Shown one piece after another: positions 1-14,328 of a stretch of DNA of 14,328 nt. The translations under genes were made by a program, and so were the position numbers. Numbering within the stretch: the stretch's first letter is position 1; each line of letters begins with the position of its first letter. The notes under the pieces were generated by a model. The model searched no databases, had not been told where the DNA came from, and saw only the letters and a list, made by a program, of their open reading frames with translations. Source of the stretch: a virus (Duplodnaviria; Heunggongvirae; Uroviricota; Caudoviricetes); the IMG/VR virus record IMGVR_UViG_2778261450_000002, positions 1-14,328 of that record; one strand, given 5' to 3'.

Positions 1-1248
1 ATGGCACTGAATATTCCATTCAGAAATGCGTACTATCGTTTTGCATCCAGTTACTCATTTCTCTTTTTTATTTCCTGGTCGCTGTGGTGGTCGTTATACG
101 CTATTTGGCTGAAAGGACATCTAGGGTTGACAGGGACGGAATTAGGTACACTTTATTCGGTCAACCAGTTTACCAGCATTCTATTTATGATGTTCTACGG
201 CATCGTTCAGGATAAACTCGGTCTGAAGAAACCGCTCATCTGGTGTATGAGTTTCATCCTGGTCTTGACCGGACCGTTTATGATTTACGTTTATGAACCG
301 TTACTGCAAAGCAATTTTTCTGTAGGTCTAATTCTGGGGGCGCTATTTTTTGGCTTGGGGTATCTGGCGGGATGCGGTTTGCTTGATAGCTTCACCGAAA
401 AAATGGCGCGAAATTTTCATTTCGAATATGGAACAGCGCGCGCCTGGGGATCTTTTGGCTATGCTATTGGCGCGTTCTTTGCCGGCATATTTTTTAGTAT
501 CAGTCCCCATATCAACTTCTGGTTGGTCTCGCTATTTGGCGCTGTATTTATGATGATCAACATGCGTTTTAAAGATAAGGATCACCAGTGCGTAGCGGCA
601 GATGCGGGAGGGGTAAAAAAAGAGGATTTTATCGCAGTTTTCAAGGATCGAAACTTCTGGGTTTTCGTCATATTTATTGTGGGGACGTGGTCTTTCTATA
701 ACATTTTTGATCAACAACTTTTTCCTGTCTTTTATGCAGGTTTATTCGAATCACACGATGTAGGAACGCGCCTGTATGGTTATCTCAACTCATTCCAGGT
801 GGTACTCGAAGCGCTGTGCATGGCGATTATTCCTTTCTTTGTGAATCGGGTAGGGCCAAAAAATGCATTACTTATCGGAGTTGTGATTATGGCGTTGCGT
901 ATCCTTTCCTGCGCGCTGTTCGTTAACCCCTGGATTATTTCATTAGTGAAGTTGTTACATGCCATTGAGGTTCCACTTTGTGTCATATCCGTCTTCAAAT
1001 ACAGCGTGGCAAACTTTGATAAGCGCCTGTCGTCGACGATCTTTCTGATTGGTTTTCAAATTGCCAGTTCGCTTGGGATTGTGCTGCTTTCAACGCCGAC
1101 TGGGATACTCTTTGACCACGCAGGCTACCAGACAGTTTTCTTCGCAATTTCGGGTATTGTCTGCCTGATGTTGCTATTTGGCATTTTCTTCTTGAGTAAA
1201 AAACGCGAGCAAATAGTTATGGAAACGCCTGTACCTTCAGCAATATAG
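1..1248 (+). CDS. cscB: LacY-family oligosaccharide:H+ symporter (MFS), probably sucrose permease; flanks the prophage
   Basis: 415-aa ORF from ATG at 1 to TAG at 1246-1248. Hydrophobic throughout, with LacY-like blocks (GIVQDKLGLKKPLIW, FEYGTARAWGSFGYAIG, PKNALLIGVVIMALRIL, EVPLCVISVFKYSV). Length and N-terminus match my recollection of E. coli CscB; the symbol is from memory and not verified. Confidence 0.8.
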   Translation: MALNIPFRNAYYRFASSYSFLFFISWSLWWSLYAIWLKGHLGLTGTELGTLYSVNQFTSILFMMFYGIVQDKLGLKKPLIWCMSFILVLTGPFMIYVYEPLLQSNFSVGLILGALFFGLGYLAGCGLLDSFTEKMARNFHFEYGTARAWGSFGYAIGAFFAGIFFSISPHINFWLVSLFGAVFMMINMRFKDKDHQCVAADAGGVKKEDFIAVFKDRNFWVFVIFIVGTWSFYNIFDQQLFPVFYAGLFESHDVGTRLYGYLNSFQVVLEALCMAIIPFFVNRVGPKNALLIGVVIMALRILSCALFVNPWIISLVKLLHAIEVPLCVISVFKYSVANFDKRLSSTIFLIGFQIASSLGIVLLSTPTGILFDHAGYQTVFFAISGIVCLMLLFGIFFLSKKREQIVMETPVPSAI

Positions 1249-1256
1249 ACGTAAAC

Positions 1257-1301
1257 TTTTTCCGGTTGTTGTCGATAGCTCTATATCCCTCAACCGGAAA
1301 A
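1257..1301. repeat. 11-bp perfect inverted repeat (TTTTCCGGTTG / CAACCGGAAAA) with 22-nt spacer, directly after the permease stop
   Basis: Arms at 1258-1268 and 1291-1301 are exact reverse complements. The loop is long for an intrinsic terminator and there is no clean T-run, so the function is unclear (terminator, REP-like element or junction scar). Confidence 0.35.
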
Positions 1302-1775
1302 TAATAATAGTAAAATGCTTAGCCCTGCTAATAATCGCCTAATCCAAACGCCTCATTCATGTTCTGGTACAGTCGCTCAAATGTACTTCAGATGCGCGGT
1401 TCGCTGATTTCCAGGACATTGTCGTCATTCAGTGACCTGTCCCGTGTATCACGGTCCTGCGAATTCATCAAGGAATGCATTGCGGAGTGAAGTATCGAGT
1501 CACGCCATATTTCGCTATCAGGATTCTGTGTGATGGTTACATCGCCCGGCTCAGGGCTGTTTAGTCATCAGCGCTTTCTGACAGTGCTGAGATTTCAACC
1601 TGTTGCAGTAAAAATGAGTAGATATAAGGCAAGTGTGCTGCCAAACCCATCTTTTACGGGGTGAAGGTAGATTTCGTTTGAAGGGTATCTGGTGCCCTGC
1701 AGACATCTACTTGGCGCGGCAGGGGATTGATTGGAATGGTGTTTTTTAGATGTGAAAAATATTTTACCCGCTATT

Positions 1776-1976
1776 TTACCCATTGGCGCGGCTTAAGAGC
1801 TTATTTTTGAATTCACAATGGTCACGATATAACCATCTTGCTCGCCCGTGGATAACTTTGGCTTTTGGCAGGTCGCCGGACTTAATCCGGTCATAGATGA
1901 AGGTCTTACCGAAGCCAGTATCAGCCATGATGAATTTCAAATCAACCAGTGAATCAGGTTGTAGTTCGTGTTGCAT
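1776..1976 (-). CDS. AlpA/Xis-family excisionase-like HTH DNA-binding protein
   Basis: 66 aa, ATG at 1976-1974 preceded by a GGAGA Shine-Dalgarno. Sequence (…LKFIMADTGFGKTFIYDRIKSGDLPKAKVIHGRARWLYRDHCEF…) fits the AlpA/excisionase winged-helix pattern. No integrase ORF follows it. Confidence 0.6.
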   Translation of the reverse strand: MQHELQPDSLVDLKFIMADTGFGKTFIYDRIKSGDLPKAKVIHGRARWLYRDHCEFKNKLLSRANG

Positions 1977-2021
1977 GAGTGCTATCTCCGAATATGGAAT
2001 CGAACCTGCAAATCAGGCAAG

Positions 2022-2042
2022 AAAAAGCCGCATTGATGCGGC
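2022..2042 (-). terminator. intrinsic terminator for leftward transcription, upstream of the xis-like gene
   Basis: Minus strand reads GCCGCA-TCAA-TGCGGC followed by TTTTT. Confidence 0.5.
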
Positions 2043-2111
2043 GATGGTAGGTCTGGATATCATTGAGCAATGAACAGGCCTCATCGAGAGTGAGGCGGTG
2101 TTATTTCATGG

Positions 2112-2456
2112 TTAGTCCTTGCGTAGCTCGCTGATTCTTCTGTAAGTCTCTGGTGCTTTGTTTCCGTGTATCTTCATTTCAGACTTCAACAGAGCAACGA
2201 GGGAATCCCATTCGTTGAGGATTCCTTTGAATGCCGGAACGCGCTTTGCAACCTTGTTGAATGAATCTCTGATTTCTGGAATCTGCTCAACAAGTGCAAC
2301 GCATCGTCTGAAATCGGCTGCGTCATGGGGAGCGCCGAAGTGATGACCATAGATATTCTTTTTCAGTCCACATGCGATTGAGGCAAGAGTTGCGCTACTG
2401 ATGCCGACATCGCCAGTCGATTGCCATTTCAAAACCTTCATAGCCAAATCTGACAT
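2112..2456 (-). CDS. hypothetical phage early-left protein (114 aa)
   Basis: ORF with ATG at 2456-2454 preceded by GGAGA (MSDLAMKVLKW…). The longer ORF-track start at 2483 would lie inside the terminator hairpin and has no RBS. Confidence 0.55.
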   Translation of the reverse strand: MSDLAMKVLKWQSTGDVGISSATLASIACGLKKNIYGHHFGAPHDAADFRRCVALVEQIPEIRDSFNKVAKRVPAFKGILNEWDSLVALLKSEMKIHGNKAPETYRRISELRKD

Positions 2457-2467
2457 TTCTTGTCTCC

Positions 2468-2492
2468 AATAAAAAACCGCCATCAGGCGGCT
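2468..2492 (-). terminator. intrinsic terminator with the upstream gene's stop codon in the loop
   Basis: Minus strand: AGCCGCC-TGAT-GGCGGTT then TTTTATT. The TGA in the loop is the stop of the 55-aa ORF 2483..2650. Confidence 0.5.
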
Positions 2493-2650
2493 TGGTGTTC
2501 TTTCAGTTCTTCAATTCGAATATTGGTTACTTCTGCATGTGCTATCTGCGCCCATATCATCCAGTGGTCATAGCAGTCATTGATGTTCTCTGCTTCGATA
2601 ACTCTGTTGAATGGTTCTCCATTCCATTCACCTGTGACTCGGAAGTGCAT
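2483..2650 (-). CDS. small hypothetical protein (55 aa)
   Basis: ATG at 2650-2648 with GGAG upstream, hand-translated as MHFRVTGEWNGEPFNRVIEAENINDCYDHWMIWAQIAHAEVTNIRIEELKEHQAA. Below the 60-aa ORF-track cutoff; flanked by terminators on both sides. Confidence 0.4.
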   Translation of the reverse strand: MHFRVTGEWNGEPFNRVIEAENINDCYDHWMIWAQIAHAEVTNIRIEELKEHQAA

Positions 2651-2660
2651 TTATCATCTC

Positions 2661-2687
2661 CAAAAACAAAACTCGCCGTAGCGAGTT
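2661..2687 (-). terminator. intrinsic terminator for leftward transcription
   Basis: Minus strand: AACTCGC-TACG-GCGAGTT followed by TTGTTTTTG. Confidence 0.5.
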
Positions 2688-2749
2688 CAGATAAAAGAAA
2701 TCCCCGCGAGTGCGAGGATTGTCATTCACCTTTAACGGCAAGTTGCAGG

Positions 2750-3361
2750 TTAGCCACGGTTAACCTCCAGTTGTGGTGCTGCCTCAATAGCAGCCCTGTA
2801 ACCAGCAGCATGACCGCGAAAGTTAGCAATCTCTGATAGCCACGCTTTAATCATGGCCTGAGTTGGTTCCTTCGGCACCATAACCCAACCATCCGGAATT
2901 ACCGGAGAGTTGCCACCGGGAATATTTTCCGGAATATTTTGTTGTGCGTTTTGTGGTTGTTCGGATTTACCCTGAAGCATGGCGGCGCGGCAGGCGTTCC
3001 AGCCAGCTGTTCGCCCAAGCGCGTAAACTTCAGATGGCTCAAGATAATCAATGTCATGCCCGTCCTCATCGTCGTTCTCAGGTAATGCAGCAGGTACTAC
3101 CGGTACTGGCGGAGCGGCGTAGACTTCAATAATCCCATTGTCAATAGGCCATTCTCCATCCTTGAGATAGTCACTTGTGCCGTCAACTTGCTGTTCAGCA
3201 ATGTGGAATGCACCAACTGGTTCTGCCTCAAGCGAGGCCAGTGCAATTCGTGCCAGTTCCCTAAGATTTTCGCTATATGGTGAAGTATTATCACGATTGA
3301 TTATGTGATTAGCTGTATCTATGAGAACTTGCTTTTGTTCTTCTCTGTTCATAGTGGTCAT
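2750..3361 (-). CDS. hypothetical phage protein (203 aa, acidic/Pro-rich central region)
   Basis: Long ORF with ATG start, 1 nt downstream of the stop of the preceding gene in the leftward operon. No family recognised. Confidence 0.65.
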   Translation of the reverse strand: MTTMNREEQKQVLIDTANHIINRDNTSPYSENLRELARIALASLEAEPVGAFHIAEQQVDGTSDYLKDGEWPIDNGIIEVYAAPPVPVVPAALPENDDEDGHDIDYLEPSEVYALGRTAGWNACRAAMLQGKSEQPQNAQQNIPENIPGGNSPVIPDGWVMVPKEPTQAMIKAWLSEIANFRGHAAGYRAAIEAAPQLEVNRG

Positions 3362-3362
3362 A

Positions 3363-3662
3363 TCACATCACCCTGAAGCCGTTGCATTTACGTAAGAAAT
3401 CGCAGATATAGCCCTTCATTTTTTCGTGCCAATCCCGATCATTCCCATTGCACCAACCATCAGGTGGAGTCCAGTTTTCTATCAGAGCAGCCATTTTCTT
3501 TGCTTTCGCCGGAGTAGCTGTTGCGGTATCGCAGTAATGACGAGTGTCAACAAACTTATCCATGCCATCGATATCAAGTACGCAAAACCATGTGTGATTC
3601 GGCATTTCAACAGATGGTATTTGTTGCCCACGTCGACGTTTATCAATAAGACATACAGTCAT
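3363..3662 (-). CDS. hypothetical phage protein (99 aa, Cys-containing)
   Basis: Its ATG (3662-3660) overlaps the TGA of the upstream reading frame (ATGA at 3659-3662), indicating translational coupling. Confidence 0.6.
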   Translation of the reverse strand: MTVCLIDKRRRGQQIPSVEMPNHTWFCVLDIDGMDKFVDTRHYCDTATATPAKAKKMAALIENWTPPDGWCNGNDRDWHEKMKGYICDFLRKCNGFRVM

Positions 3663-4202
3663 GGTTCCACCTTCTCTATTTGCTTAAGACCGTCTCTCAC
3701 TGCATTAAGTACGCGTTCCAGATACTGGTATTTCGGGTTTGGTATCGTTGGCCAGTTGGCATACCACGGATCATCACCAAAGAGATTCAGTAGTTTGTTA
3801 CCGACGCCGAAACAGCAGCAGCTTTCTTTTACGTCATCGGTGTTTTCCGCCTCGTCCCACATTTCGCGAGCCAGTACGGCGTCGATTTCTCTCTCTTCGT
3901 AACTTTATGATTTCTGACTTCACGAAAAGCAGATTTGCATCGTTGTCATCGTCGACCGTGCTTAGCAGTTGAGGGTCGAAATTGTCGATTAGATAATCGT
4001 TGCTAACTCGCTTAATGAACGTCTGCACATCATCACCGCCCATAGCAAACCAAGCCGCTGTCCACGCTTTTCCGTAGCAGGTGATGGTGATTCTTCCCTT
4101 TCCATGTTCGTAGTTTTCAATCATCACTCGAATCGGATCTAGTCGCTCTGCACCGGTTATAACGAATGACAACACATCAATCTTTTCAACCGTTACACTC
4201 AC
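3659..4202 (-). pseudogene. phage gene split into two overlapping frames (3834..4202 and 3659..3862) by a frameshift at a (TC)4T/(AG)4 tract
   Basis: The upstream frame starts with GTG overlapping the previous stop (GTGA at 4199-4202) and ends in a low-complexity tail (LRRERNRRRTGSRNVGRGGKHR). The downstream frame is open from 3904 and reads as ordinary protein (YEEREIDAVLAREMWDEAENTDDVKE…). Both frames are open only across 3834-3904, and the dinucleotide tract 3888-3896 lies inside that interval. A +2 or -1 nt change there would give one ORF of about 180 aa. Confidence 0.45.
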
Positions 4203-4630
4203 TGGTTGCCTCCTTTGCGAAGCTCAGCGGCGAAGGCTACTGCGTGATCATGATGTTCAAGTGTGTATGCGCACTCAGCAAACATCTCCACGCCCTGCGC
4301 TCGTACTTCAGCCAGGAAAGCGTCGGTGGCTGGGGTTTCAGTAACATCATCTTCCCATTCGCTAAACTCCTCACGACAAAAGTCATTAAATTCCTTCTCA
4401 GATTGCTTAAGTGAGGTATTTTCAGCAGCCATCTTCGCGCATTTAGCCTCAAGGTTATCAATCGTGATTCCAACAGAACGACACTCCCGCAACGCCGTTT
4501 CCAGTTTTGATTCAAGTTCACCGAACTTACGGACAAGATATTCAGCGTTTGTTTCGTTGACCTTTAAATCTCGTGGGATGCATTTGCCTTTCAGAAATCC
4601 ATCCATCTCAATTAGTGACATTTGTTTCAT
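4199..4630 (-). CDS. hypothetical phage protein (143 aa, predicted coiled-coil, acidic C-terminus)
   Basis: ATG at 4630-4628 overlaps the upstream TGA (ATGA). Heptad-like charged sequence (…[43 protein letters not shown]…). Confidence 0.6.
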
Positions 4631-4809
4631 TTCTTCCCACTCCGGCACATCGCATTCAGATATTTGTTTTGATTTACTGACGGAAAAGAATTTCTCTTAA
4701 GTAATTCCTCTCTCGATGGCATTGGCTTTACGCGTTGGCGAATAATCATTTCTGCAGGAAGAATGCCGGGGTTGTATGCAAGTCCTCTCATGGTAAATTC
4801 CTCAGTCAT
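4627..4809 (-). CDS. small hypothetical protein (60 aa)
   Basis: ATG at 4809-4807 lies 2 nt before the TGA of the upstream gene (short overlap). Reads [60 protein letters not shown]. Confidence 0.45.
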
Positions 4810-5098
4810 TACTGATAGCGCCATAGCGTGAGCGGTAATTACGCAGGCGCGGGTCGATATATTCAGGGAAGTGGGTATATGTGGCTTTACGGAATGGTCG
4901 GATTGATGTCTGGTAAATTCGCTCTCGTTCTTCTTTCTCTGCAAGCCATATACAGTGGCGAAATTCCTTTTCCTCTTTCGTTTCCTGTGGTAGCGACATT
5001 ATCCGATCGTAGTTTTTTCTGAATTTATCCAGCACCTCCGATACGGATTTGCCGGAACAGCGGCGCGGGTCATCCGCACCATACAAAGGCGCTGGCAT
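4802..5098 (-). CDS. hypothetical phage protein (98 aa, basic)
   Basis: ATG at 5098-5096 with AGGAGA 5 nt upstream. No family recognised. Confidence 0.6.
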
Positions 5099-5114
5099 GT
5101 TTTTCTCCTGTTTA

Positions 5115-5663
5115 TTATTTAGCTAACTTTTTCCAGATCGCTGAAACGTATTTGGCTTGGTGGATGGCATCATCAAGCGCGTTGTGGCGAGTTCCTTTGA
5201 ATGGCATATCTCGCTTAGGGTCGAATCCTATTACCTTTCCAAGCTCGACGATTGTTCTTACGTCGCGGTCATTCCACCACTGCCACGGAACTGGCTGCCC
5301 TGTCAGCGAATAACTGTTTCGGAGAATAACGCAGTCAAATGATGCTCCATTCCCCCAAACCTGAACGAATTTGTGGTTAGCGTTCTTTATGATGAATTCA
5401 GATAACCATGAAAGAGCCGTTGAAAGCTCCTGAGTGTTGCTGGTTAGCGATTTTCTGGCTTCTTCACTCTGTTCCAGCCACCATAAAATCGTTGAAGCGT
5501 CAGGACGCGCCCGATATCGCATTGATGACTCAAGCGAGATATTTACCGAGAACTCTTCTCCTGTTTCTCCGGTATTCGGTTCAAAGAATACCGCCCCAAT
5601 AGAAATAACTGGCGCGTATGGCCCGTTGCCCATTGTTTCAAGGTCAACCATCAAGTGATTCAT
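5115..5663 (-). CDS. DEDDh-family 3'-5' exonuclease (DnaQ-like fold)
   Basis: 182 aa with Exo I (MVDLETMG), Exo II (WGNGASFDCVIL) and Exo III (HNALDDAIHQAKY) motifs. AAGGA RBS upstream of the ATG. Confidence 0.8.
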   Translation of the reverse strand: MNHLMVDLETMGNGPYAPVISIGAVFFEPNTGETGEEFSVNISLESSMRYRARPDASTILWWLEQSEEARKSLTSNTQELSTALSWLSEFIIKNANHKFVQVWGNGASFDCVILRNSYSLTGQPVPWQWWNDRDVRTIVELGKVIGFDPKRDMPFKGTRHNALDDAIHQAKYVSAIWKKLAK

Positions 5664-5671
5664 GTAAGTCC

Positions 5672-6187
5672 TTAAATTGCGTGAATAGCGTGACGAGGGA
5701 AAGGGAGAGTTACTGGTGCAAAGGGGATATCGTCGTCAAAATCCATAGGTGGTTCGCTGTGATTTACCTGCTTCTGAGGCTGCTGTTTTTGTTGCTGACC
5801 GTTATTTCGCTGAGGTGAAGACTGTTCATTGCCTCCTTGCTTGCCACCAAGCATTTGCATGGTTCCACCAACGCCCACGATAACTTCGGTAGTGAACCGA
5901 TCCTGTCCACTTTGATCCTGCCATTTTCTTGTCCGCAATTTGCCTTCAAGATAAACCTCAGAGCCTTTTCGCAGATATTCGCTGGCAATTTCTGCCAGTT
6001 TCCCGCTCATTACCACGCGGTGCCACTCCGTCTGCTCCTTTTGCTCTCCAGTTTGCTTATCACGCCATTGTTCTGACGTAGCAACTGTAAGGTTTGCAAA
6101 TGCCGTTCCTGATGGTGAATATCTGATTTCTGGATCATGCCCAAGGCGACCAATAATGATCACCTTATTTACGCCTCTGCTTGCCAT
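5672..6187 (-). CDS. ssb: single-stranded DNA-binding protein with a 15-residue extension beyond the DDDIPF tail
   Basis: N-terminal OB-fold region is near-identical in pattern to E. coli SSB (MASRGVNKV…TEWHRVV…[15 protein letters not shown]…[12 protein letters not shown]…TTEV), followed by a Gly/Gln-rich linker and [10 protein letters not shown]. The ORF then continues [15 protein letters not shown] before TAA. Confidence 0.9.
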
Positions 6188-6895
6188 TTATGCCGCCTGT
6201 TTTAGTTCGTTAACTCTGATGTTCATTACCTGAACGCATTTAGCCTGCGCCTCCTCGTTGCCAGCCATTAATTGCCAGTCACGCTGATAACGCTCGATGA
6301 GTTTTTCCTTGTCAGTTTCTGTCGATGCATAATCGCTGAAGTCTTTCAGGATTTGTTCGCAGTCAACCGATGGAGATTTCTGGTTGGTATTTTCTGGTGA
6401 TGGTTGATTGCCAGATGCTGGCATTGCCCATCCCGGCAGCGATGGAGGGGACCAGTAAAATCCTGTTCCATCTTTCAGTTTTGCCCTGTGCCATCCCTGC
6501 TTTTTATCGAGAGATGTTTGTGCGAAACCTTCCTCAAGGTTATACAGATACCGACCGATTCCCCACTGAACGGCAGCGCGCTTCATTGCACCGGAACGAC
6601 CACCTTTGACGGCTTCTACCTGCGTGTTTTCAGCAGCATCCCATTTGGTTACCCATTCGGAATCAATCTTTATTGATATGCCGCATTCAACGCCGCCGTT
6701 GTTGGGAATATCGCGGTATTCATTGCGCCATCCTGCTTTGCCACAAACATCGTCCAGGCGTTTCATGATTGCCCGGTTCGTTACATAAGCCAGCACCATA
6801 GCCCACACTTTGCCATCGCGTGTTTTACCGCTTTGCTGTATTCGCCATTCGATATCTTCAGGGCTGAATGGCTCATCGAATTTATTCAAATCCAT
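6188..6895 (-). CDS. Rad52-like single-strand annealing protein (Sak-type phage recombinase)
   Basis: 235 aa with the Rad52/Sak pattern (…GKVWAMVLAYVTNRAIMKRLDDVCGKAGWRNEY…WDAAENTQVEAVKGGRSGAMKRAAVQWGIGRYLY…). Sits immediately upstream of ssb. Confidence 0.75.
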   Translation of the reverse strand: MDLNKFDEPFSPEDIEWRIQQSGKTRDGKVWAMVLAYVTNRAIMKRLDDVCGKAGWRNEYRDIPNNGGVECGISIKIDSEWVTKWDAAENTQVEAVKGGRSGAMKRAAVQWGIGRYLYNLEEGFAQTSLDKKQGWHRAKLKDGTGFYWSPPSLPGWAMPASGNQPSPENTNQKSPSVDCEQILKDFSDYASTETDKEKLIERYQRDWQLMAGNEEAQAKCVQVMNIRVNELKQAA

Positions 6896-6994
6896 AATTC
6901 ACCTCAGAATGGACATGGCCCAAGGAAATAACGCTGATTTAATACTTCGACTCGGGACAAATTAAGGCATACCCGCATTCCTTCGCGGTCACCA

Positions 6995-7153
6995 TTATGG
7001 CGATACCAGAGAGCTTTCTGCGTGTACATGCGTCTCTGTAACTTGCTCTCCTTCACTGTGGTTGCAAGTGACATGAATATCTCCTTCGTTACCGATTAAT
7101 TCTTTCATCTGACGAATGAATTCTTCGTCTGACCAGTTATCTGTAAAATTCAT
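6995..7153 (-). CDS. small hypothetical protein (52 aa) in the kil-like position
   Basis: ATG at 7153-7151 overlaps the TGA of the cIII-like ORF (ATGA). Reads MNFTDNWSDEEFIRQMKELIGNEGDIHVTCNHSEGEQVTETHVHAESSLVSP. Function not recognised. Confidence 0.4.
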   Translation of the reverse strand: MNFTDNWSDEEFIRQMKELIGNEGDIHVTCNHSEGEQVTETHVHAESSLVSP

Positions 7154-7320
7154 GGACGGCCTTGTTGTTTCAAAATATCCCAAAGCTTTTCGAGCAAACT
7201 TTTCATTCTTGGTTGTTTAAAGTCTGCTCCGGTTAAAATATTTTTTCGTGAATGCTGTACCGATAAAATCGGGTTGAAAGGGCGAACCGATGCCGCCCCT
7301 GCAATAGCGAACTGTTGCAT
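7150..7320 (-). CDS. cIII: CIII-like protein (putative FtsH inhibitor that stabilises CII)
   Basis: 56 aa, hand-translated as MQQFAIAGAASVRPFNPILSVQHSRKNILTGADFKQPRMKSLLEKLWDILKQQGRP. Resembles lambda CIII (MQYAIAGW… and …LIDILNQPG). AAGGAG RBS 6 nt upstream. Below the ORF-track length cutoff. Confidence 0.55.
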   Translation of the reverse strand: MQQFAIAGAASVRPFNPILSVQHSRKNILTGADFKQPRMKSLLEKLWDILKQQGRP

Positions 7321-7395
7321 AGGATGCTCCTTCTGTTTGATTGCATAACGAAAACGCCTCTCGTGAAGCGTTATTGGTATGCGGTAAAGCCGCGC

Positions 7396-7707
7396 TTAGG
7401 CGGCTGATGTTTCTTCTTTCAGGCTTTCGAGATATTTACGTGGGTCGTCGTAACATTGGCATTCGCTGTACCAATCCACCCAGCGATCAGTAAGCCCCAT
7501 CTCTGATAAATCTTCATCGGTAAGGCTCTCATCCCACATCTCAAGGCCGTTAGCATTGCAGTAATCAGGCTTGATGTTGTTGTCATACTGAAAGGCGTCA
7601 TAATCAGCCAGTGCGTCCATCAGGCGAACACCCTCTTCAACACTTGCCACTTCTACAATGAACGGCTTCATAGGTACTTGCGGGATATGCCAGACACGTA
7701 ATTTCAT
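7396..7707 (-). CDS. acidic hypothetical protein (103 aa, about 22% Asp+Glu)
   Basis: ATG at 7707-7705 with GGAGG 5 nt upstream, directly after a terminator. The longer ORF-track start at 7761 would lie inside that terminator. Confidence 0.6.
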   Translation of the reverse strand: MKLRVWHIPQVPMKPFIVEVASVEEGVRLMDALADYDAFQYDNNIKPDYCNANGLEMWDESLTDEDLSEMGLTDRWVDWYSECQCYDDPRKYLESLKEETSAA

Positions 7708-7719
7708 ATATCCTCCGTC

Positions 7720-7748
7720 AAAAAAATTGCCCTCACATTGGAGGGCAA
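7720..7748 (-). terminator. intrinsic terminator in the leftward operon (tL1-like position)
   Basis: Minus strand: TTGCCCTC-CAATGT-GAGGGCAA followed by TTTTTTT. Confidence 0.6.
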
Positions 7749-7808
7749 AGAAGATTTCCAATAATCAGAACAAGTCGGCTCCTGTTTAGTTACGAGCGAC
7801 ATTGCTCC

Positions 7809-7836
7809 GTGTATTCACTCGTTGGAATGAATACAC
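7809..7836. other. 9-bp perfect inverted repeat (GTGTATTCA / TGAATACAC) with 10-nt loop, downstream of ral
   Basis: Exact reverse-complement arms at 7809-7817 and 7828-7836. Could be an RNA stem-loop or a protein-binding palindrome; no T-run follows. Confidence 0.3.
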
Positions 7837-7863
7837 AGTGCAGTGTTTATTCTGTTGTTTATG

Positions 7864-7894
7864 CCAAAAATAAAGGCCACCATCAGGCAGCCTT
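7864..7894 (-). terminator. intrinsic terminator with the ral stop codon in the loop
   Basis: Minus strand: AAGGCTGCC-TGAT-GGTGGCCTT (9 bp including two G-U pairs) then TATTTTTGG. Same architecture as the terminator at 2468-2492. Confidence 0.45.
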
Positions 7895-8083
7895 GTTGTT
7901 CTGTTTACCAAGTTCTCTGGCAATCATTGCCGTCGTTCGTATTGCCCATTTATCGACATATTTCCCATCCTCCATTACAGGGAACATTTCTTCAGGCTTA
8001 ACCATGCATTCCGATTGAAGCTTGCATCCATTGCATCGCTTGAATTGTCCACACCATTGATTTTTATCAATAGTCGTAGTCAT
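7883..8083 (-). CDS. ral: Ral-like restriction alleviation protein (66 aa)
   Basis: Sits immediately left of N as ral does in lambda. Has a Cys cluster (C-x5-C-x2-C-x5-C). The lambda Ral match (MTTTIDKNQW…) is recalled from memory, not aligned. Confidence 0.6.
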   Translation of the reverse strand: MTTTIDKNQWCGQFKRCNGCKLQSECMVKPEEMFPVMEDGKYVDKWAIRTTAMIARELGKQNNKAA

Positions 8084-8153
8084 AAGGATAGTCCTGGTAT
8101 TGTTCCATCACATCCTGCGGATGCTCTTCGAACTCTTCAAATTCTTCTTCCAT
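8067..8153 (-). CDS. 28-aa highly acidic micro-ORF between N and ral
   Basis: ATG at 8153-8151 preceded by GAGGTG, hand-translated as MEEEFEEFEEHPQDVMEQYQDYPYDYDY. Overlaps the ral start by 17 nt. Too short to call with confidence. Confidence 0.3.
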   Translation of the reverse strand: MEEEFEEFEEHPQDVMEQYQDYPYDYDY

Positions 8154-8161
8154 ATATCACC

Positions 8162-8488
8162 TCAAATAAGTGGTTTGCTGCCTAATTTCATTTTCTGGCG
8201 ACCAACACAAGTCAACCCCATTTCACTACGTGGCTTGCTGTACCATGTGCGCTGATTCTTGCGTTCAATACGTTGCAGGTTGCTTTCAATCTGTTCGTGG
8301 TATTCAGCCAGCACTGTAAGGTCTATCGGATTCAGTGCGCTTTCTACTCGTGATTTCGGTTTGCGATTCAGCGAGAGAATAGGGCGGTTAACTGGTTTTG
8401 CGCTTACCCCAACCAACAGGGGATTTGCTGCTTTCCATTGAGCCTGTTTCTCTGCGCGACGTTCGCGGCGGCGTGTTTGTGCATCCAT
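8162..8488 (-). CDS. N: antitermination protein N (lambda type)
   Basis: 108 aa from the ATG at 8488-8486: MDAQTRRRERRAEKQAQWKAANPLLVGVSAKPVNRPILSLNRKPKSRV…, including the arginine-rich RNA-binding motif. The ORF-track start at 8578 would be a spurious 30-aa extension. Confidence 0.9.
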   Translation of the reverse strand: MDAQTRRRERRAEKQAQWKAANPLLVGVSAKPVNRPILSLNRKPKSRVESALNPIDLTVLAEYHEQIESNLQRIERKNQRTWYSKPRSEMGLTCVGRQKMKLGSKPLI

Positions 8489-8598
8489 CTGGATTCTCCT
8501 GTCAGTTAGCTTTGAGTAACGCGCCGTGATGCTTATCTCCACGGTTGCTGTCTTGCAGCTGCATTTCGCGCTACTCAAAGCCTTCTGCTTTGAATGCT

Positions 8599-8629
8599 GC
8601 CCTTCTTCAGGGCTTAATTTTTAAGAGCA
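8599..8629 (-). promoter_or_regulatory. nutL (boxA TGCTCTTA and boxB GCCCTGAAGAAGGGC)
   Basis: Minus strand reads GATGCTCTTAAAAATTAAGCCCTGAAGAAGGGCAGCATTCAAAGCAGAAGG, matching the lambda nutL arrangement. Lies between pL and N. Confidence 0.8.
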
Positions 8630-8660
8630 TCACCTTCATGGTGGTCAGTGCGTCCTGCTG

Positions 8661-8741
8661 ATGGCTTAAAATTACAAGAAAGATTGTATGTTGTAAACAA
8701 GAAATATTGTAATAAGAGGCGTAAAAAACAAACTCCATTGT
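8661..8741 (-). promoter_or_regulatory. pL promoter with three 434-type operators (OL)
   Basis: Three 14-bp ACAA-N6-TTGT sites: ACAAGAAAGATTGT (8674-8687), ACAAGAAATATTGT (8697-8710), ACAAACTCCATTGT (8728-8741). The leftward transcript start region CATCAGCAGGACGCACTGACCAC follows on the minus strand. Confidence 0.8.
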
Positions 8742-8791
8742 TTTTAAACGGAAAATAGTTTGTTTTTTGGTTATAGAAATCGAGGTGAGGA

Positions 8792-10144
<1,353 letters not shown>

Positions 10145-10152
10145 GACATTCC

Positions 10153-10184
10153 CGCTCTTATACATCCCCGCCCTGAAAAAGGGC
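10153..10184 (+). promoter_or_regulatory. nutR (boxA CGCTCTTA and boxB GCCCTGAAAAAGGGC)
   Basis: Exact boxA/boxB-like motifs immediately downstream of cro. Confidence 0.8.
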
Positions 10185-10261
10185 ATTACCAGAGAAAAAA
10201 TCTCTATGGTTTTGCGTTTCTTTGCGAAGCCAACTCTATCTAATCATTAAGGAAATTATGT

Positions 10262-10543
10262 ATGGGTACTATTGCAACTAAAAGCAAGAAAGCGGCTCGC
10301 ATCGAGTCAGCCTTGCTGAACAAACTGGCACTGATGGGGCAGAAGACATTCGCTCGCGCGATGGGGGTTCCGGAATACCAGGTAAGCCGATGGAAGAATG
10401 GTTTCTTCTCGCAGGTAAGCATGATGCTGGCTGTTCTGGAATACGGAATCGAAGACGATGAAATGGCTGAACTGACTAAGCGGCTTGCCGATTACCTGAC
10501 AAAAGAAAAAGCCCCGAAGAACGGCGAATTCTTCGAGGCCTGA
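10262..10543 (+). CDS. cII: CII-like transcriptional activator
   Basis: 93 aa. The block …ARIESALLNKLALMGQKTFARAMGVPEYQVSRWKNGFFSQVSMMLAVLEYGIEDDEMAEL… parallels lambda CII (…LRIESALLNKIAMLG…QISRWKRDWIPKFSMLLAVLEWGVVDDDMARL…). Confidence 0.85.
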   Translation: MGTIATKSKKAARIESALLNKLALMGQKTFARAMGVPEYQVSRWKNGFFSQVSMMLAVLEYGIEDDEMAELTKRLADYLTKEKAPKNGEFFEA

Positions 10544-10577
10544 TGTAGAAAGACTGGATCAATCCACAGGAGTAATT

Positions 10578-10739
10578 ATGACAAAACGTCGTAAGAAATA
10601 CCAGGAAAAAGAAGAGATTCGACACCCTGATTCACCTGAGGGATTAGTGGTAGCCGCAGCAAATAACAGGGCGTTCGCAGAGCGCCTTGTTGGTGTTTAC
10701 AGACTAGCCAAAGCAGGAGTGAAACATGGGCGTCGTTAA
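10578..10739 (+). CDS. small basic hypothetical protein (53 aa) between cII and the O-like gene
   Basis: ATG at 10578 with AGGAG 5 nt upstream, hand-translated as [53 protein letters not shown]. Its 3' end overlaps the O-like start by 14 nt. Below the ORF-track cutoff. Confidence 0.35.
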   Translation: MTKRRKKYQEKEEIRHPDSPEGLVVAAANNRAFAERLVGVYRLAKAGVKHGRR

Positions 10740-11556
10740 GTTAGCTGATTACAGGCCTCAACTGGAGGTCGTGGAGCATCGCGTGGCAGAACTCGAAGAT
10801 GGCTACACTCGGACTGCAAACACACTGTTAGAAGCCGCCATGCTTTCTGGACTTACTCTACATCAGTTACTGATTGTTATGGCTGTGTGGCGCAAGACAT
10901 ACGGTTACAACAAAAAAATAGATTGGATCGGAAACGAACAGTTCGCTGAACTCACTGGCATGGCACCAACCAAATGTTCTACCGCCAAAAACGAGCTTAT
11001 CAGAATGGGAGTTCTCATTCAGGTGGGGCGTCAAGTTGGTATGAATACAAACATTTCCGAGTGGAAAACGAAAGTTAACGGATTCGGTAAAACATTTACC
11101 AATTCGGTAAAACAAACCTTCACCAAATCGGTAAAAAGCAATTTACCGAATCAGTCAAACACAAAAGACAATATACAAAAGACAATAAATACAAATACCC
11201 CCTTACCCCCTAACGGGGGCGGCGATGGGCAGGTTAAACCTGAACGTCGCAAGGCAGAACGAATCGACTATGAATCCTTCCTGAACGCCTACAACACCGA
11301 AGTCGGTGACAGACTTCCACATGCTGTTGCGGTCAACGAGAAACGCAAACGTCGCCTGAAGAAAATCATCCCGCAACTGAAAACGCCAAACGTGGACGGT
11401 TTCAGAGCGTATGTCAGGGCGTTTGTGCATCAGGCCAAGCCATTTTACTTCGGAGACAACGACACGGGATGGACGGCAGATTTTGATTACCTGCTGAGAG
11501 AAGACTCGTTAACGGGAGTTCGGGAAGGGAAGTTTGCAGACAGGGGGATTGCATGA
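10726..11556 (+). CDS. replication initiator, lambda O-like N-terminal domain
   Basis: 276 aa. N-terminal region (…[17 protein letters not shown]…[25 protein letters not shown]…NELIRMGVL…NISEW) parallels lambda O. The gene contains the iteron array. Confidence 0.85.
11082..11200. repeat. replication origin: iteron array followed by an AT-rich tract, inside the O-like gene
   Basis: Direct repeats of TTCGGTAAAACA at 11083-11094 and 11103-11114, a degenerate copy at 11127-11137 and an inverted copy TTACCGAA at 11143-11150. Then ACAAAAGACAATA x2 and an A/T-rich run (11161-11197). Same layout as ori-lambda. Confidence 0.65.
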
Positions 11557-12929
11557 GACAGGATATCGAAGCGAGCGTTATCGGTGGCCTGCTGATTGGT
11601 GGATTAACACCAACCGCCAGTGACGTTCTGGCAACGCTGGAGCCGGAAGCGTTTTCAATTCCGCTCTACCGGAAAGCCTTCGAGGTTATCCGCAAGCAGG
11701 CGAGAAACAGAAACCTAATCGATGCGCTGATGGTTGCCGAGGCGTGCGGAGAGGAGCATTTCACGTCAATCCTGATGACCAGCAAAAACTGCCCGAGTGC
11801 CGCAAACCTGAAGGGATATGCCGGAATGGTCGCGGATAACTATCACCGCCGTCTGGTGCTGGAAATCATGGATGAAATGCGTGAACCAATTCAGAGCGGA
11901 ACCATCGACGCATCGAGTCAGGCGATGGATGAGCTTGTAAAGCGTCTTTCATCCATCAGAAAGCCCCGTGACGAGGTTAAACCTGTACGGTTAGGGGAAA
12001 TCATTACTGACTACACTGACACGCTTGACAGGCGTCTGAGGAACGGAGAAGAGTCCGATACCCTGAAGACCGGAATCGAAGAACTTGACGCTATCACCGG
12101 AGGGATGAACGCGGAAGACCTGGTGATTATCGCCGCTCGTCCTGGTATGGGGAAAACCGAACTGGCGCTGAAGATTGCCGAAGGCGTTGCAAGCCGCGTT
12201 ATTCCTGGTTCTGACGTCCGGCGCGGAGTATTGATTTTCTCGATGGAAATGAGCGCATTGCAGATTGCAGAGCGAAGCATTGCCAACGCCGGGAGGATGT
12301 CGGTTAGCGTGCTGCGAAATCCTGCATCGATGGATGACGAAGGCTGGGCGCGCGTTGCTAACGGCATGAGTCAGCTTGCAGATTTGGATGTATGGGTAGT
12401 CGATGCCTCGCGGTTATCTGTCGAAGAAATACGCTCAATCGCAGAACGGCACAAACAGGAAAATCCAAACCTGTCACTCATCATGGCGGATTATCTTGGC
12501 CTGATTGAGAAGCCGAAAGCAGACCGCAACGACCTCGCAATTGCTCACATCTCCGGAAGCCTGAAGGCGATGGCGAAAGACCTGAAAACACCGGTTATTT
12601 CCCTGAGTCAGCTTTCACGCGATGTTGAGAAGCGACCAAACAAACGCCCGACAAACGCAGATTTGCGTGATTCAGGAAGCATTGAACAGGACGCAGACTC
12701 AATCATCATGCTCTATCGGGAAGCGGTATATGACGAGAACAGTAGCGCCGCGCCATTTGCTGAAATCATCGTGACGAAAAACCGTTTTGGCTCACTTGGT
12801 ACGGTTTACCAGCGGTTCTGCAACGGACACTTTGTTGCATGTGACCAGGATGAAGCCAGACAGATTTGCACAACATCAAATGCACCCGCTGCACGTGGCA
12901 GACGATATGCACAAGGGGCTGACGTATGA
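11553..12929 (+). CDS. DnaB-family replicative DNA helicase (phage-encoded, P22 gene 12 type)
   Basis: 458 aa. ATG overlaps the O-like TGA (ATGA). Walker A (ARPGMGKT), an Asp-rich Walker B region (…[10 protein letters not shown]…) and DnaB-like N-terminal domain. Confidence 0.9.
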
Positions 12930-13006
12930 CCATCTACATCACTGAGCTTGTAACAGGCCTGCTGGTAATCGCAGGCCTTTTTATTTGGGGGAGAGGGAAG
13001 TCATGA
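12926..13006 (+). CDS. 26-aa hydrophobic micro-ORF coupled between the helicase and ninB
   Basis: ATG overlaps the helicase TGA (ATGA at 12926-12929) and its TGA overlaps the ninB ATG (ATGA at 13003-13006). Reads [26 protein letters not shown], one predicted transmembrane helix. May instead be chance reading across the terminator. Confidence 0.25.
12955..12986 (+). terminator. intrinsic terminator (tR2-like position)
   Basis: AGGCCTGC-TGGTAATC-GCAGGCCT followed by TTTTATTTGG. Confidence 0.5.
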
Positions 13007-13443
13007 AAAAACTAACCTTTGAAATTCGATCTCCGGCACATCAGCAAAACGCTATTCACGCAGTACAGCAAATCCTTCCAGACCCAACCAAGCCAATCGT
13101 AGTGATCATTCAGGAGCGCAACCGCAGCTTAGACCAGAATCGGAAGCTTTGGGCTTGCCTTGGTGACGTCTCTCGTCAGGTTGAATGGCATGGGCGTTGG
13201 CTGGATGCAGAAAGCTGGAAGTGTGTGTTTACCGCAGCATTAAAGCAGCAGGATGTTGTTCCTAACCTTGCCGGGAATGGCTTTGTGGTAATAGGCCAGT
13301 CAACCAGCAGGATGCGTGTAGGCGAATTTGCGGAGCTATTAGAGCTTATACAGGCATTCGGTACAGAGCGTGGCGTTAAGTGGTCAGACGAAGCGCGACT
13401 GGCTCTCGAATGGAAAGCGCGATGGGGAGATCGGGCTGCATGA
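13003..13443 (+). CDS. ninB: NinB (Orf-family recombination mediator)
   Basis: 146 aa from the ATG at 13003 (GAGAGGGAAG RBS): [34 protein letters not shown]…, lambda NinB-like as recalled. Confidence 0.9.
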   Translation: MKKLTFEIRSPAHQQNAIHAVQQILPDPTKPIVVIIQERNRSLDQNRKLWACLGDVSRQVEWHGRWLDAESWKCVFTAALKQQDVVPNLAGNGFVVIGQSTSRMRVGEFAELLELIQAFGTERGVKWSDEARLALEWKARWGDRAA

Positions 13444-13967
13444 CTATCAAATCAAATACTCCAGCACACGACAAGGACTGCTGGCAAACGCCGCTTTGGC
13501 TTTTTGATGCACTGGATATTGAGTTTGGATTCTGGCTGGATTCGGCAGCGAGCGACAAAAATGCTCTGTGTGCTCACTGGCTAACTGAGGCCGACGACGC
13601 GCTCAATTCTGAGTGGGTAAGCCACGGTGCAATCTGGAATAACCCACCGTACAGCAATATCAGGCCGTGGGTGGAAAAAGCCGCTGAGCAGTGCATACAA
13701 CAGCGACAGACGGTAGTTATGCTTGTGCCAGAGGATATGTCAGTCGGATGGTTCAGCAAGGCTCTGGAGAGTGTTGACGAAGTTCGCATCATCACTGATG
13801 GACGGATTAATTTTATCGAACCATCGACGGGGCTGGAGAAGAAGGGAAACAGCAAAGGCTCAATGCTGCTGATTTGGCGACCGTTCATCAGTCCTCGACG
13901 GATGTTTACTACCGTATCCAAAGCGGCATTGATGGCGATCGGGCAGGGCGTCAGGAGGGCGGCATGA
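13440..13967 (+). CDS. phage Dam-like DNA N6-adenine methyltransferase (orphan)
   Basis: 175 aa. ATG overlaps the ninB TGA (ATGA). Catalytic NPPY motif (…[10 protein letters not shown]…) and the conserved WQTP…LF…LD N-terminal block. No restriction endonuclease partner in the window. Confidence 0.85.
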
Positions 13968-14140
13968 GACGACAGCGACGAAGTATCACCGACATAATCT
14001 GCGAAAACTGCAAATACCTTCCAACGAAACGCTCCAGAAATAAACGCAAGCCAATCCCAAAAGAATCTGACGTAAAAACCTTCAACTACACGACTCACCT
14101 GTGGGATATCCGGTGGCTAAGACATCGTGCGAGGAAATGA
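13964..14140 (+). CDS. ninE: NinE-like protein (58 aa)
   Basis: ATG overlaps the methyltransferase TGA (ATGA). Reads [58 protein letters not shown], lambda NinE-like as recalled. Confidence 0.85.
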
Positions 14141-14142
14141 CA

Positions 14143-14328
14143 ATGGATTATTCACAGTTAAGTGATTTTGAAATTAACTTAAAAGTCGCGCATATCGTGC
14201 TAGGAAAAAACAATTACGACTGGGATCCAGAAAAGAAAGAAGTTTACTTGGCTGGAATTGATGGTGGTGAGTTTTTGCCTTGCGGATATTTCGACCCATG
14301 TAATATGGTGTCACGAACGGTGCAATAG
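14143..14328 (+). CDS. hypothetical nin-region protein (61 aa)
   Basis: ATG at 14143 with GAGGAA 6 nt upstream (an alternative ATG at 14137 overlaps the ninE stop). Reads MDYSQLSDFEINLKVAHIVLGKNNYDWDPEKKEVYLAGIDGGEFLPCGYFDPCNMVSRTVQ and stops at 14326-14328. Confidence 0.5.
   Translation: MDYSQLSDFEINLKVAHIVLGKNNYDWDPEKKEVYLAGIDGGEFLPCGYFDPCNMVSRTVQ

Follow-up and report, generated by a model that had tools for sequence, protein, structure and literature searches.

Two small genes on the minus strand of a tailed-phage sequence each run into a GC-rich hairpin, with the stop codon in the hairpin loop just ahead of a U-run. The original prediction for this DNA (IMG/VR record IMGVR_UViG_2778261450_000002, positions 1 to 14,328, hereafter the window) was that a single reused module, tying the end of translation to the end of transcription, is present in two copies at these sites. 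The question is whether the resemblance reflects such a module, or two terminators that came to look alike separately. The evidence presented here indicates that the window probably contains two independent Rho-independent terminators of the early-left (pL) operon, each at a mosaic boundary, with the in-loop stop codons arising from tight packing of genes against the hairpins.

Setting in the early-left operon

The genes of the window match early-left genes of Sf6, HK97 and lambda that lie downstream of N and nutL. The same confidence covers, jointly with the reading above, the assignment of the region to the N-antiterminated pL operon of a lambdoid (Sf6/HK97/P22-like) prophage. The features surrounding the two sites are as follows.

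2483..2650, minus strand: orf55 homologue, 55 aa (lambda orf55 = lambdap35, 29118..29285), C-terminus ...EHQAA, TGA at 2485-2483
2112..2456, minus strand: 114-aa gene 3' of site 1, SD GGAG at 2467-2464, ATG at 2456
2669..2720, minus strand: two terminator-like hairpins directly upstream of orf55 (2720-2699 and 2688-2669), corresponding to predicted lambda t3 and t4
7883..8083, minus strand: ral (restriction alleviation), 66 aa, Pfam Ral PF11058 (E=1.6e-48, 162 bits), C-terminus ...NNKAA, TGA at 7885-7883
7727..7748, minus strand: homologue of lambda tL2a, a separate hairpin (7748-7727) about 125 nt downstream of site 2; Sf6 annotates tL2A

The orf55 coding sequence is called identically by PGAP in E. 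coli 1190, and a Pfam search assigned no family to orf55, the 114-aa gene or a 203-aa gene. Only 26 nt separate orf55 from the 114-aa gene, and these are occupied by the 3' arm of the site 1 hairpin, the U-run and the SD. The spacer between site 2 and tL2a corresponds to the lambda sRNA LPR1/PreS (bioRxiv 10.1101/2024.10.31.621285). An Rfam scan of the entire window at gathering thresholds returned no family match. Two other candidate elements were set aside. TGATG, with an in-frame ATG at 2483, was considered as translational coupling to the downstream start and rejected, the frame being closed by stops in both P22 and lambda; in addition, lambda ral has TGATAG, and PGAP begins the next gene at the SD-linked ATG. 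A 7/8 match to Chi, GATGGTGG, was dropped, about ten such matches being expected per window by our arithmetic.

Anatomy of the two hairpins

The basic anatomy was correctly described in the original prediction. Both minus-strand hairpins can be read directly from the sequence, both appear in the terminator scan, and both have the loop UGAU, in which the UGA serves as the upstream gene's stop codon and the last two alanine codons lie in the 5' arm.

2468..2493, minus strand: site 1, predicted intrinsic terminator t'I; AAGCCGCC-UGAU-GGCGGUUU at 2493-2474, then UUUAUU; stem 2493-2486 / 2481-2474, loop 2485-2482, U-run 2476-2471 then AUU; GCC GCC (2491-2486) makes up the 5' arm and the orf55 stop lies in the loop
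7864..7894, minus strand: site 2, predicted ral-end terminator hairpin; AAGGCUGCC-UGAU-GGUGGCCUU at 7894-7873, then the tail UAUUUUU; stem 7894-7886 / 7881-7873 (two G-U pairs), loop 7885-7882; GCT GCC lies within the 5' arm and the ral stop in the loop

The minus strand is the coding strand of the pL operon, and the U-tracts, UUUUUUAUU at site 1 and UUUAUUUUU at site 2, abut the stems at the 3' side of a gene end, as in intrinsic terminators. Both stems are more stable than their composition predicts, with folds of -13.0 kcal/mol (z -3.6) at site 1 and -13.9 kcal/mol (z -3.5) at site 2, and at each site none of 200 shuffled sequences was equally stable.

Site 1 is the lambda/P22 terminator t'I

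The sequence AAGCCGCCTGATGGCGGTTTTTT is the same in the window, lambda and P22, the lambda copy lying at the end of orf55 and upstream of xis, and the identity with P22 and lambda extends over hairpin, loop and U-run as well as the 45 nt before them. The P22 record L06296 labels the same 23-bp hairpin t'I, 'function inferred from identity to lambda t'I', and the sequence also equals predicted t5-lambda (-11.2 kcal/mol; Bloch et al. 2014, PMC4195576). By sequence identity, site 1 is thus the already-known t'I; its terminator activity would follow from the P22 annotation, which itself reasons from lambda t'I. The element shows no difference from t'I of lambda and P22, and only the downstream neighbor varies: the 114-aa gene here, xis in lambda and eaC in P22. 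In 22 of 135 copies, P22-like ones among them, the hairpin is kept with no ORF ending inside it. When all phage records were searched for t'I in a third setting, only orf55-linked or vestigial copies appeared, plus chance-level matches (E>=0.09).

Site 2 as a predicted allele-dependent terminator at the end of ral

The ral-end hairpin carries no annotation in the lambda or Sf6 records. It shares with the lambda tL2 cluster both the ral-to-ea10 interval of the pL operon and the structural type, and its identity with lambda tL2a (TTGCCCTCCAGTGTGAGGGCGATTTTTT) was considered; this was rejected, as the tL2a homologue is the different hairpin further downstream. The site 2 hairpin folds strongly in the window and in about 56% of relatives, and is degenerate in about a third of ral genes or more (33 of 80 loci), including lambda, whose allele folds at -4.3 kcal/mol, no better than shuffled sequence, which indicates that the element is dispensable in some phages. 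In the alignment of the ral-slot family 92.7% of cells are paired, versus 11-62% with the partner slid, and the changes are mostly from G-U to G-C. The structure is therefore kept, but compensatory covariation did not exceed that of shuffled alignments and is not counted as evidence of selection on the hairpin. From these features we infer that site 2 is an unannotated, allele-dependent terminator of the lambda-family pL operon, with predicted activity.

Both hairpins lie on mosaic boundaries

Downstream of each U-run at least five unrelated sequences alternate among 80 related loci, and at the ral slot at least seven different genes lie upstream; some ral-slot loci carry two tandem copies of the terminator, seen when an extra gene is present. 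By this pattern of a short conserved stretch flanked by unrelated alternatives, both hairpins are portable boundary elements of lambdoid mosaicism, and the word module in the original prediction is right in this sense. They resemble the bsq boundary sequences of Sf6 and HK620, which are likewise short conserved gene-end stretches between alternative modules. In the Sf6 record bsq2 adjoins the t'I hairpin and bsq4 covers tL2A; the ral-end hairpin, in contrast, is not annotated as such a feature, and the conserved stretch here starts within the upstream gene's final two or three codons.

The position of both sites exactly on mosaic junctions, the HK620 and Sf6 boundary sequences next to t'I and tL2a, and the tandem duplication of the ral-slot terminator with an extra gene could also mean that the hairpins are kept mainly as recombination linkers, or as stabilizers or processing sites for 3' ends of the pL transcript, with terminator activity secondary. 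A third hairpin of the same architecture points in this direction:

7388..7405, minus strand: Ala-Ala-stop-in-loop hairpin (tca GCC GCC TAA gcg cgg ct) at the end of a gp17-like gene (7396..7707), -10.4 kcal/mol

It has no U-run, a terminator-like hairpin at 7372-7353 comes after it, and the same gene-end boundary also closes lambda ea10. Sites 1 and 2, however, have canonical U-tracts right after their stems, which neither recombination nor stability alone would need; junctions at gene ends are also expected from selection against disrupted genes, and the conserved stretches are short (20-30 bp). A mainly non-terminator role is accordingly quite unlikely.

The reading of two independent terminators accounts for the boundary position as follows. 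Site 1, directly upstream of the xis-side genes, and site 2, which closes the ral slot, would each be retained as a hairpin with U-run while the DNA beyond is swapped. Such hairpins would stop polymerase that lacks the N modification, as in the prophage state, on stray transcripts or in early infection, and N-modified polymerase from pL would presumably read through.

Likeness of the two sites

The 30 nt around sites 1 and 2 were said to be roughly 75% identical. This is about right when gaps are allowed, the best local alignment having 31 identities in 39 columns including three gap columns, but not for the ungapped, loop-anchored comparison (20/30). The 23-nt consensus offered for them conceals a 1-nt indel, which puts the upstream match AGAACAMCAAG out of frame between the sites (EHQAA-stop versus QNNKAA-stop).

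The proposal that the sites are copies of one module with a deliberately placed stop codon, such that a translated message reads through and an untranslated one terminates, draws on real similarities. The loop and closing pairs are identical, the stop is in the same frame and both genes end in Ala-Ala. With a score of 35 the two form the best genuine terminator pair in the window, first of 405 non-overlapping terminator-like pairs (406 in total; the next scores 26), and they fall in the extreme tail of a chance comparison: related phage DNA (1.4 Mb) yielded 124 terminator families, and 4-12 of the 7,626 family pairs (0.05-0.16%) score 35 or more. At that rate 0.2-0.6 such pairs are expected per comparable window. 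Against common descent, t'I reaches scores of 31-34 with unrelated terminators, close to its 35-38 with the ral end, and a blastn search of 2.3 Gb of phage DNA with the t'I 51-mer (E<=10) found a single place in lambda-type records and did not retrieve the ral end. Together with the frame difference upstream, these results do not bear out the idea that a single module was used twice. Shared constraints, rather than a shared module, best account for the resemblance, although the extreme-tail similarity means that t'I and the ral end may have a distant common origin.

Stop codons and the expected effect of the ribosome

Placement of the stop codon varies among the loci. The ral-slot terminator serves seven different upstream gene families, whose stops fall variously within the loop, inside the 5' arm, or 4 or 40 nt upstream. 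Four of the seven, unrelated to one another, retain the in-loop stop in the same frame, ending (K/E)-A-A-stop, which exceeds a random junction model and hints at some selection for the arrangement. Across these loci the gene end falls in a hairpin loop for 16 of 339 families, and 21 of 49 gene-proximal terminator families have a stop inside the hairpin or within 12 nt of it. In compact phage genomes, terminators that overlap a stop codon are thus frequent (about 5% of our sampled gene families), and their efficiency should depend on transcription-translation coupling.

That a ribosome can mask a terminator near a stop codon is an established principle: when a stop codon was moved to 5 bp before lambda tR2, termination fell from about 90% to below 10%, and the effect was relieved in the absence of translation (Li et al. 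2016, PMC4824070). The mechanism is therefore physically sound, and at these two sites it is plausible by analogy. As in other ribosome-repressed terminators (PMC4824070; pyrBI-type), the stop lies within a ribosome footprint of the terminator, and a coupled ribosome should accordingly keep the hairpin from folding. Transcript 3' ends are predicted to lie about 15-20 nt beyond the CDS end here; the median in E. coli is 48 nt (PMC12207403). A ribosome close behind polymerase and halted at the UGA of the loop would mask the 5' arm, making termination less efficient.

In the manner of an attenuator, both sites have an ORF end that overlaps the hairpin, the stop codon falling in its loop. Unlike pyrBI-type attenuation, the overlap is not conserved among homologues, given the t'I copies without an ORF end, the variable stops at the ral slot and the degenerate ral hairpins, and the sites have no leader peptide, promoter-proximal position, pause or regulatory codons. 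During lytic growth, by established lambda biology, polymerase carrying the N modification should pass these terminators in any case. These observations do not support the claim of a selected link between translational stop and terminator, and copies of one reused, ribosome-sensing module are on balance unlikely. We infer, by analogy, that any ribosome effect on termination is a side effect of the geometry rather than a demonstrated or conserved regulatory design.

Under the reading of two independent terminators, stops would fall in the loop because genes packed this closely extend into the hairpin. No stop codon fits in a GC-rich 5' arm, which, read in frame as GCN GCN, would give Ala-Ala, an ending already favored in these phages, and the A/U-containing loop would be the earliest position at which an in-frame stop can occur.

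The finding itself matters little. One site is a textbook-era terminator, and the other adds an unannotated, allele-dependent predicted terminator, which lies a short way upstream of PreS/LPR1, an sRNA described recently.

C-terminal Ala-Ala in the phage genes

C-terminal Ala-Ala is about ten-fold enriched in the genes of these phages. It is the commonest C-terminal dipeptide, ending 26 of 344 gene families. Internally the dipeptide frequency is 0.8%; host genes have the ending in 3 of 141 cases (p=0.02), and shifted positions give 0-8 families; among annotated CDS it ends 4 of 18 in lambda and 4 of 35 in Sf6. Such endings are common without hairpins too, which speaks against Ala-Ala as a mark of a reused module. 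Their codon choice varies, and this and the enrichment would fit selection on the dipeptide itself, as an ssrA-like tail for ClpXP/ClpAP or as termination context, with the GCN GCN hairpin arm as by-product. The degron idea for Ala-Ala tails comes from the ssrA/ClpX literature. Selection on the tail leaves the complementary 3' arm and the U-run unexplained, and the last Ala codon is GCA in 14 of 25 cases and never GCG, which suggests a cause at the nucleotide level, e.g. ATGA overlaps. As the source of the hairpins it is very improbable.

An arrangement of two Ala codons, stop and hairpin occurs at three slots: orf55/t'I; the ral, 83-aa, 107-aa and 207-aa genes; and ea10/gp17. It could represent a recurrent lambdoid 'gene-end cassette', with or without a U-run, that bounds a conserved boundary sequence on its left. 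Module exchange would then fuse unrelated accessory genes to the cassette in frame. We consider this unlikely; if true, the Ala-Ala tail and in-loop stop would be functional, for example in protein turnover or translation-conditional termination. The Ala-Ala enrichment, together with mosaic boundaries that often start inside the last two codons, is relevant to the joining of lambdoid modules and to how stable early phage proteins are.

Two probable terminators in the early-left operon

The hairpins that close the 55-aa ORF (orf55) and ral on the minus strand are most likely ordinary intrinsic terminators. The anatomy in the original prediction, two GC-rich hairpins each with the upstream gene's stop codon in a UGAU loop and a U-run after the stem, is confirmed by the sequence, by folding, and by an independent terminator scan of the window that recovered both.

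2493-2468, minus strand: site 1, 5'-AAGCCGCC UGAU GGCGGUUU UUUAUU
7894-7866, minus strand: site 2, 5'-AAGGCUGCC UGAU GGUGGCCUU UAUUUUU

At site 1 the TGA at 2485-2483 ends the 55-aa ORF (...EHQAA, then stop) and GCC GCC forms the 5' arm; at site 2 ral (Pfam Ral, E=1.6e-48) stops at the TGA at 7885-7883, with GCT GCC within the 5' arm. Folding energies are -13.0 kcal/mol (z -3.6) and -13.9 kcal/mol (z -3.5), respectively, and no shuffle was equally stable.

Megablast against phage records showed 96-98% identity, in patches, between the window and Sf6, HK446, HK544, HK97, Sf101 and CUS-3, and the minus-strand gene order is the early-left (pL) operon order of those phages: by transcription, N, ral, a gp17-like gene, the kil/cIII region, erf, accessory genes and a TorI/xis-like gene. 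Sites 1 and 2 therefore both lie within one long leftward operon. In lambda-type phages the pL operon is transcribed by N-modified polymerase. Unmodified polymerase would be halted at both sites while N-modified polymerase would read through, as expected from their position downstream of nutL and established lambda biology. At the window edge, Pfam identifies a host LacY-type MFS transporter (1-1248), and the transporter/prophage junction is also present in E. coli chromosomes. This gene, a complete LacY-family oligosaccharide transporter, opens the stretch 1-1330, and the prophage's xis/TorI side comes immediately after it without an integrase, which fits Sf6/HK620-type phages with attP between int and xis.

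Site 1 is the known terminator t'I

A search with the site 1 region led to P22 records that already annotate the identical hairpin. GenBank L06296 (P22) labels it t'I, on the strength of its identity to lambda t'I, inside a stretch noted as identical to lambda, and RefSeq P22 has the same hairpin, on the opposite strand, as the terminator of the antisense aI RNA. Direct reading shows that the window, lambda and P22 are identical through the hairpin and U-run and for 45 nt before, and the ORF is lambda orf55 (lambdap35). The hairpin was also predicted as t5-lambda (-11.2 kcal/mol) by Bloch et al. 2014, who predicted two hairpins directly upstream of orf55 as t3 and t4 (PMC4195576). Given the P22 annotation, the lambda/P22 identity and the t5-lambda prediction, site 1 is already known, as t'I. 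The terminator scan found equivalents of t3- and t4-lambda in the window.

2720-2699, minus strand: t3/t4-lambda equivalent
2688-2669, minus strand: t3/t4-lambda equivalent

These stand in tandem within the 100 nt separating a 203-aa gene from orf55, and orf55 is bracketed by three hairpins within 250 nt. The orf55 TGA also overlaps an ATG (TGATG; 2454-2485, minus strand) that shares the frame of the downstream gene and could extend its N-terminus by 9 codons (MAVFYWRQE) across the U-run. This ATG is probably not used, because P22 and lambda have stops in that frame and PGAP picks an SD-linked ATG.

Site 2 is a predicted, allele-dependent terminator

Site 2 is a new, predicted terminator of familiar intrinsic type whose strength depends on the allele. 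It is not tL2a, the known lambda terminator downstream of ral, whose homologue forms a separate hairpin some 125 nt further downstream, at 7748-7727; the annotated tL2A of the Sf6 record likewise lies downstream of the ral-end position. The lambda ral end (AAAGCUGCCUGAUAGUGGCC) carries two G-to-A differences that lose the closing pair and an outer pair, and its folding energy of -4.3 kcal/mol does not beat that of shuffled sequence. This weak allele probably explains the missing terminator annotation at the lambda ral end. Among 80 IMG/VR ral loci, 45 have the strong allele of the window, 33 the weak lambda type and 2 an intermediate; in Salmonella, P22-like ral genes close with another degenerate form of this sequence and have a separate terminator some 45 nt beyond it.

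Between the ral-end hairpin and the tL2a homologue lies a spacer (about 7727-7815, minus strand) that is about 97% identical to lambda and corresponds to LPR1/PreS, an Hfq-binding/-dependent lambda sRNA of about 88 nt whose 3' end is tL2a and which is reported to up-regulate host dnaN (bioRxiv 10.1101/2024.10.31.621285). The window prophage thus probably encodes this sRNA. The ral-end terminator, if functional, would lie roughly 50 nt upstream of the LPR1/PreS 5' end.

Resemblance between the sites and their mosaic context

The best local alignment of the two sites has 31 identities in 39 columns, 3 of these being gap columns, and 20 of 30 positions are identical without gaps. The consensus originally proposed conceals a 1-nt indel, and the upstream match AGAACAMCAAG therefore falls in different reading frames at the two sites. 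For comparison, we applied the hairpin and U-tract rules used on the window to 248 related phage sequences totalling 1.4 Mb; 306 distinct hairpins passed a dG cut-off of -7 or below and were grouped into 124 families. Local alignment scores of 61-nt segments between families average 13 (sd 2.7), and a score of at least 35 occurs in 4 of 7,626 family pairs using representatives and in 12 of 7,626 using the best allele pair. Members of the t'I family reach at most 38 against the ral family, 37 against t4-lambda (via a common downstream flank) and 31-34 against unrelated families. About six points of the similarity between sites 1 and 2 arise from the TGA in both loops. The window's 29 hairpins make 406 pairs, among which 0.2-0.6 would be expected to score this high. 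A blastn search of all phage records with the t'I 51-mer (E<=10) found one place only in lambda-type records and did not retrieve the ral end, and gave chance matches to other terminators at 34-40 bits. Judged by these alignments, the resemblance appears to lie at the upper edge of chance and not beyond. The scores against unrelated terminators and the ral end missed by blastn leave the idea of one common, reused module unsupported.

Both hairpins are mosaic boundaries. At least five unrelated sequences follow the t'I U-run in related loci, including lambda xis, the window's 114-aa gene, tRNA-like/att sequence and two others. At least six alternatives follow the ral U-run, several beginning a new gene within 5-25 nt. 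Just beyond t'I, at a distance of about 15-45 nt from the U-run, roughly 25 of 80 orf55 loci (L089, L091, L138 and others) carry ATTGCCTGATTTGCAGGTTCGATTCCC..., which resembles the 3' portion of a tRNA (T-loop GGTTCGATTCC) and suggests that t'I there directly abuts an attachment site in a tRNA gene. On the other side, at least seven unrelated genes precede the terminator of the ral slot, the position that it closes.

Genes upstream of the ral-slot terminator and position of their stop codons
ral, 66 aa, ending KAA: stop in loop
83-aa gene, ending KAA: stop in loop
107-aa gene, ending KAA: stop in loop
207-aa gene, ending EAA: stop in loop
156-aa gene: TAG overlaps 5' arm
121/149-aa gene: TAA 4 nt upstream of hairpin
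87-aa gene: stop 40 nt upstream of hairpin

The ral-slot hairpin has two variants, AAGGCUGCC-UGAU-GGUGGCCUU and AGGCCG-CAUAGU-CGGCCU, with the outer stem, U-run and downstream flank in common, and some loci carry both in tandem, one after ral and one after an inserted gene. Across 26 aligned variants, 92.7% of cells are paired versus 11-62% with the partner slid, every change but one is one-sided, and covariation is not above shuffles. The hairpin is retained, which is no proof of selection on structure.

Stop codon position and ribosome occupancy

The stop-in-loop arrangement is not conserved: among the 135 copies of t'I in the loci retrieved, 22 P22-like ones retain the hairpin plus the final 45 nt of orf55 with no ORF ending at the loop UGA, and the stop position in the ral slot is variable. 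The four ral-slot genes that read into the hairpin all do so in the one frame that stops in the loop, which hints at selection against reading through the 3' arm and U-run. Base rates came from 49 terminator families near which an ORF of 40 aa or more ends.

Stop position in terminator families (n=49)
13-60 nt upstream: 28
0-12 nt upstream: 12
5' arm: 4
Loop: 3 by majority category; 5 with at least one such member
3' arm: 1
Tail: 1

A stable hairpin loop coincides with the gene end in 16 of 339 gene families, and the window's three stop-in-loop cases (orf55, ral and the gp17-like gene) among about 28 genes are unremarkable. In E. coli Term-seq data the median distance from CDS end to 3' end is 48 nt (PMC12207403); by that measure the phage terminators here sit unusually close to their genes, as would be expected in compact genomes.

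A ribosome terminating at the loop UGA would cover the 5' arm and part of the 3' arm. At lambda tR2, with the stop codon moved to 5 bp before the hairpin, Li et al. saw termination fall from about 90% to <10% and recover once translation was abolished (PMC4824070). Ribosome-dependent termination, as originally suggested, is therefore plausible and physically expected for the stop-in-loop geometry; the principle is established and the concept not novel. Its importance at sites 1 and 2 is doubtful, because the arrangement is not conserved and normal operon expression would bypass the terminators via N.

Ala-Ala gene ends

The most interesting by-product of the analysis is the pattern of gene ends and boundaries. 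Ala-Ala C-termini are strongly over-represented in lambdoid early-region proteins. Of 344 families in a crude gene set, 26 have an Ala-Ala C-terminus, far ahead of any other terminal dipeptide (KK, with 6 families, is second), against an internal Ala-Ala frequency of 0.8% and 0-8 families at positions shifted by 1-7 residues; in 150 kb of host chromosome the count is 3/141 (p=0.02). Annotated CDS give 4 of 18 in lambda 27-36 kb (orf55, Bet, Ea10, Ral) and 4 of 35 in Sf6. Stop-in-loop hairpins occur in 6/27 Ala-Ala enders versus 10/312 others (p=7e-4), and the majority of Ala-Ala enders have no hairpin. GCN GCN before the stop is thus a common gene-end feature in these phages that incidentally makes a good 5' arm, and its generality further weakens the case for a dedicated module common to sites 1 and 2.

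One slot is occupied alternatively by lambda ea10 or the window's gp17-like superinfection-exclusion gene (PF17420). These unrelated genes have the last two Ala codons, the stop and a hairpin in common, the shared boundary beginning GCC GCC T(G/A)A GCGCGGCTTTACCGC (lambda ea10 end, GCCGCCTGAGCGCGGCTTTACCGC). The gp17-like gene ends ...SAA, with its TAA in the loop of a third such hairpin, which a terminator-like hairpin follows after 20 nt.

7388-7405, minus strand: Ala-Ala-stop-in-loop hairpin, AGCCGC-CUAAGC-GCGGCU, -10.4 kcal/mol, no U-run
7353-7372, minus strand: terminator-like hairpin

Seven of about 28 window genes end in Ala-Ala: 2483-2650, 6188-6895, 7396-7707 and 7883-8083 on the minus strand, and 9929-10144, 13003-13443 and 13380-13967 on the plus strand. 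Such ends also occur in related phage loci L001, L002 and L168-L247. The last Ala codon is mostly GCA and never GCG, and the Ala-Ala end often comes after AGG/GAGG and is followed by an ATGA or TAATG start overlap.
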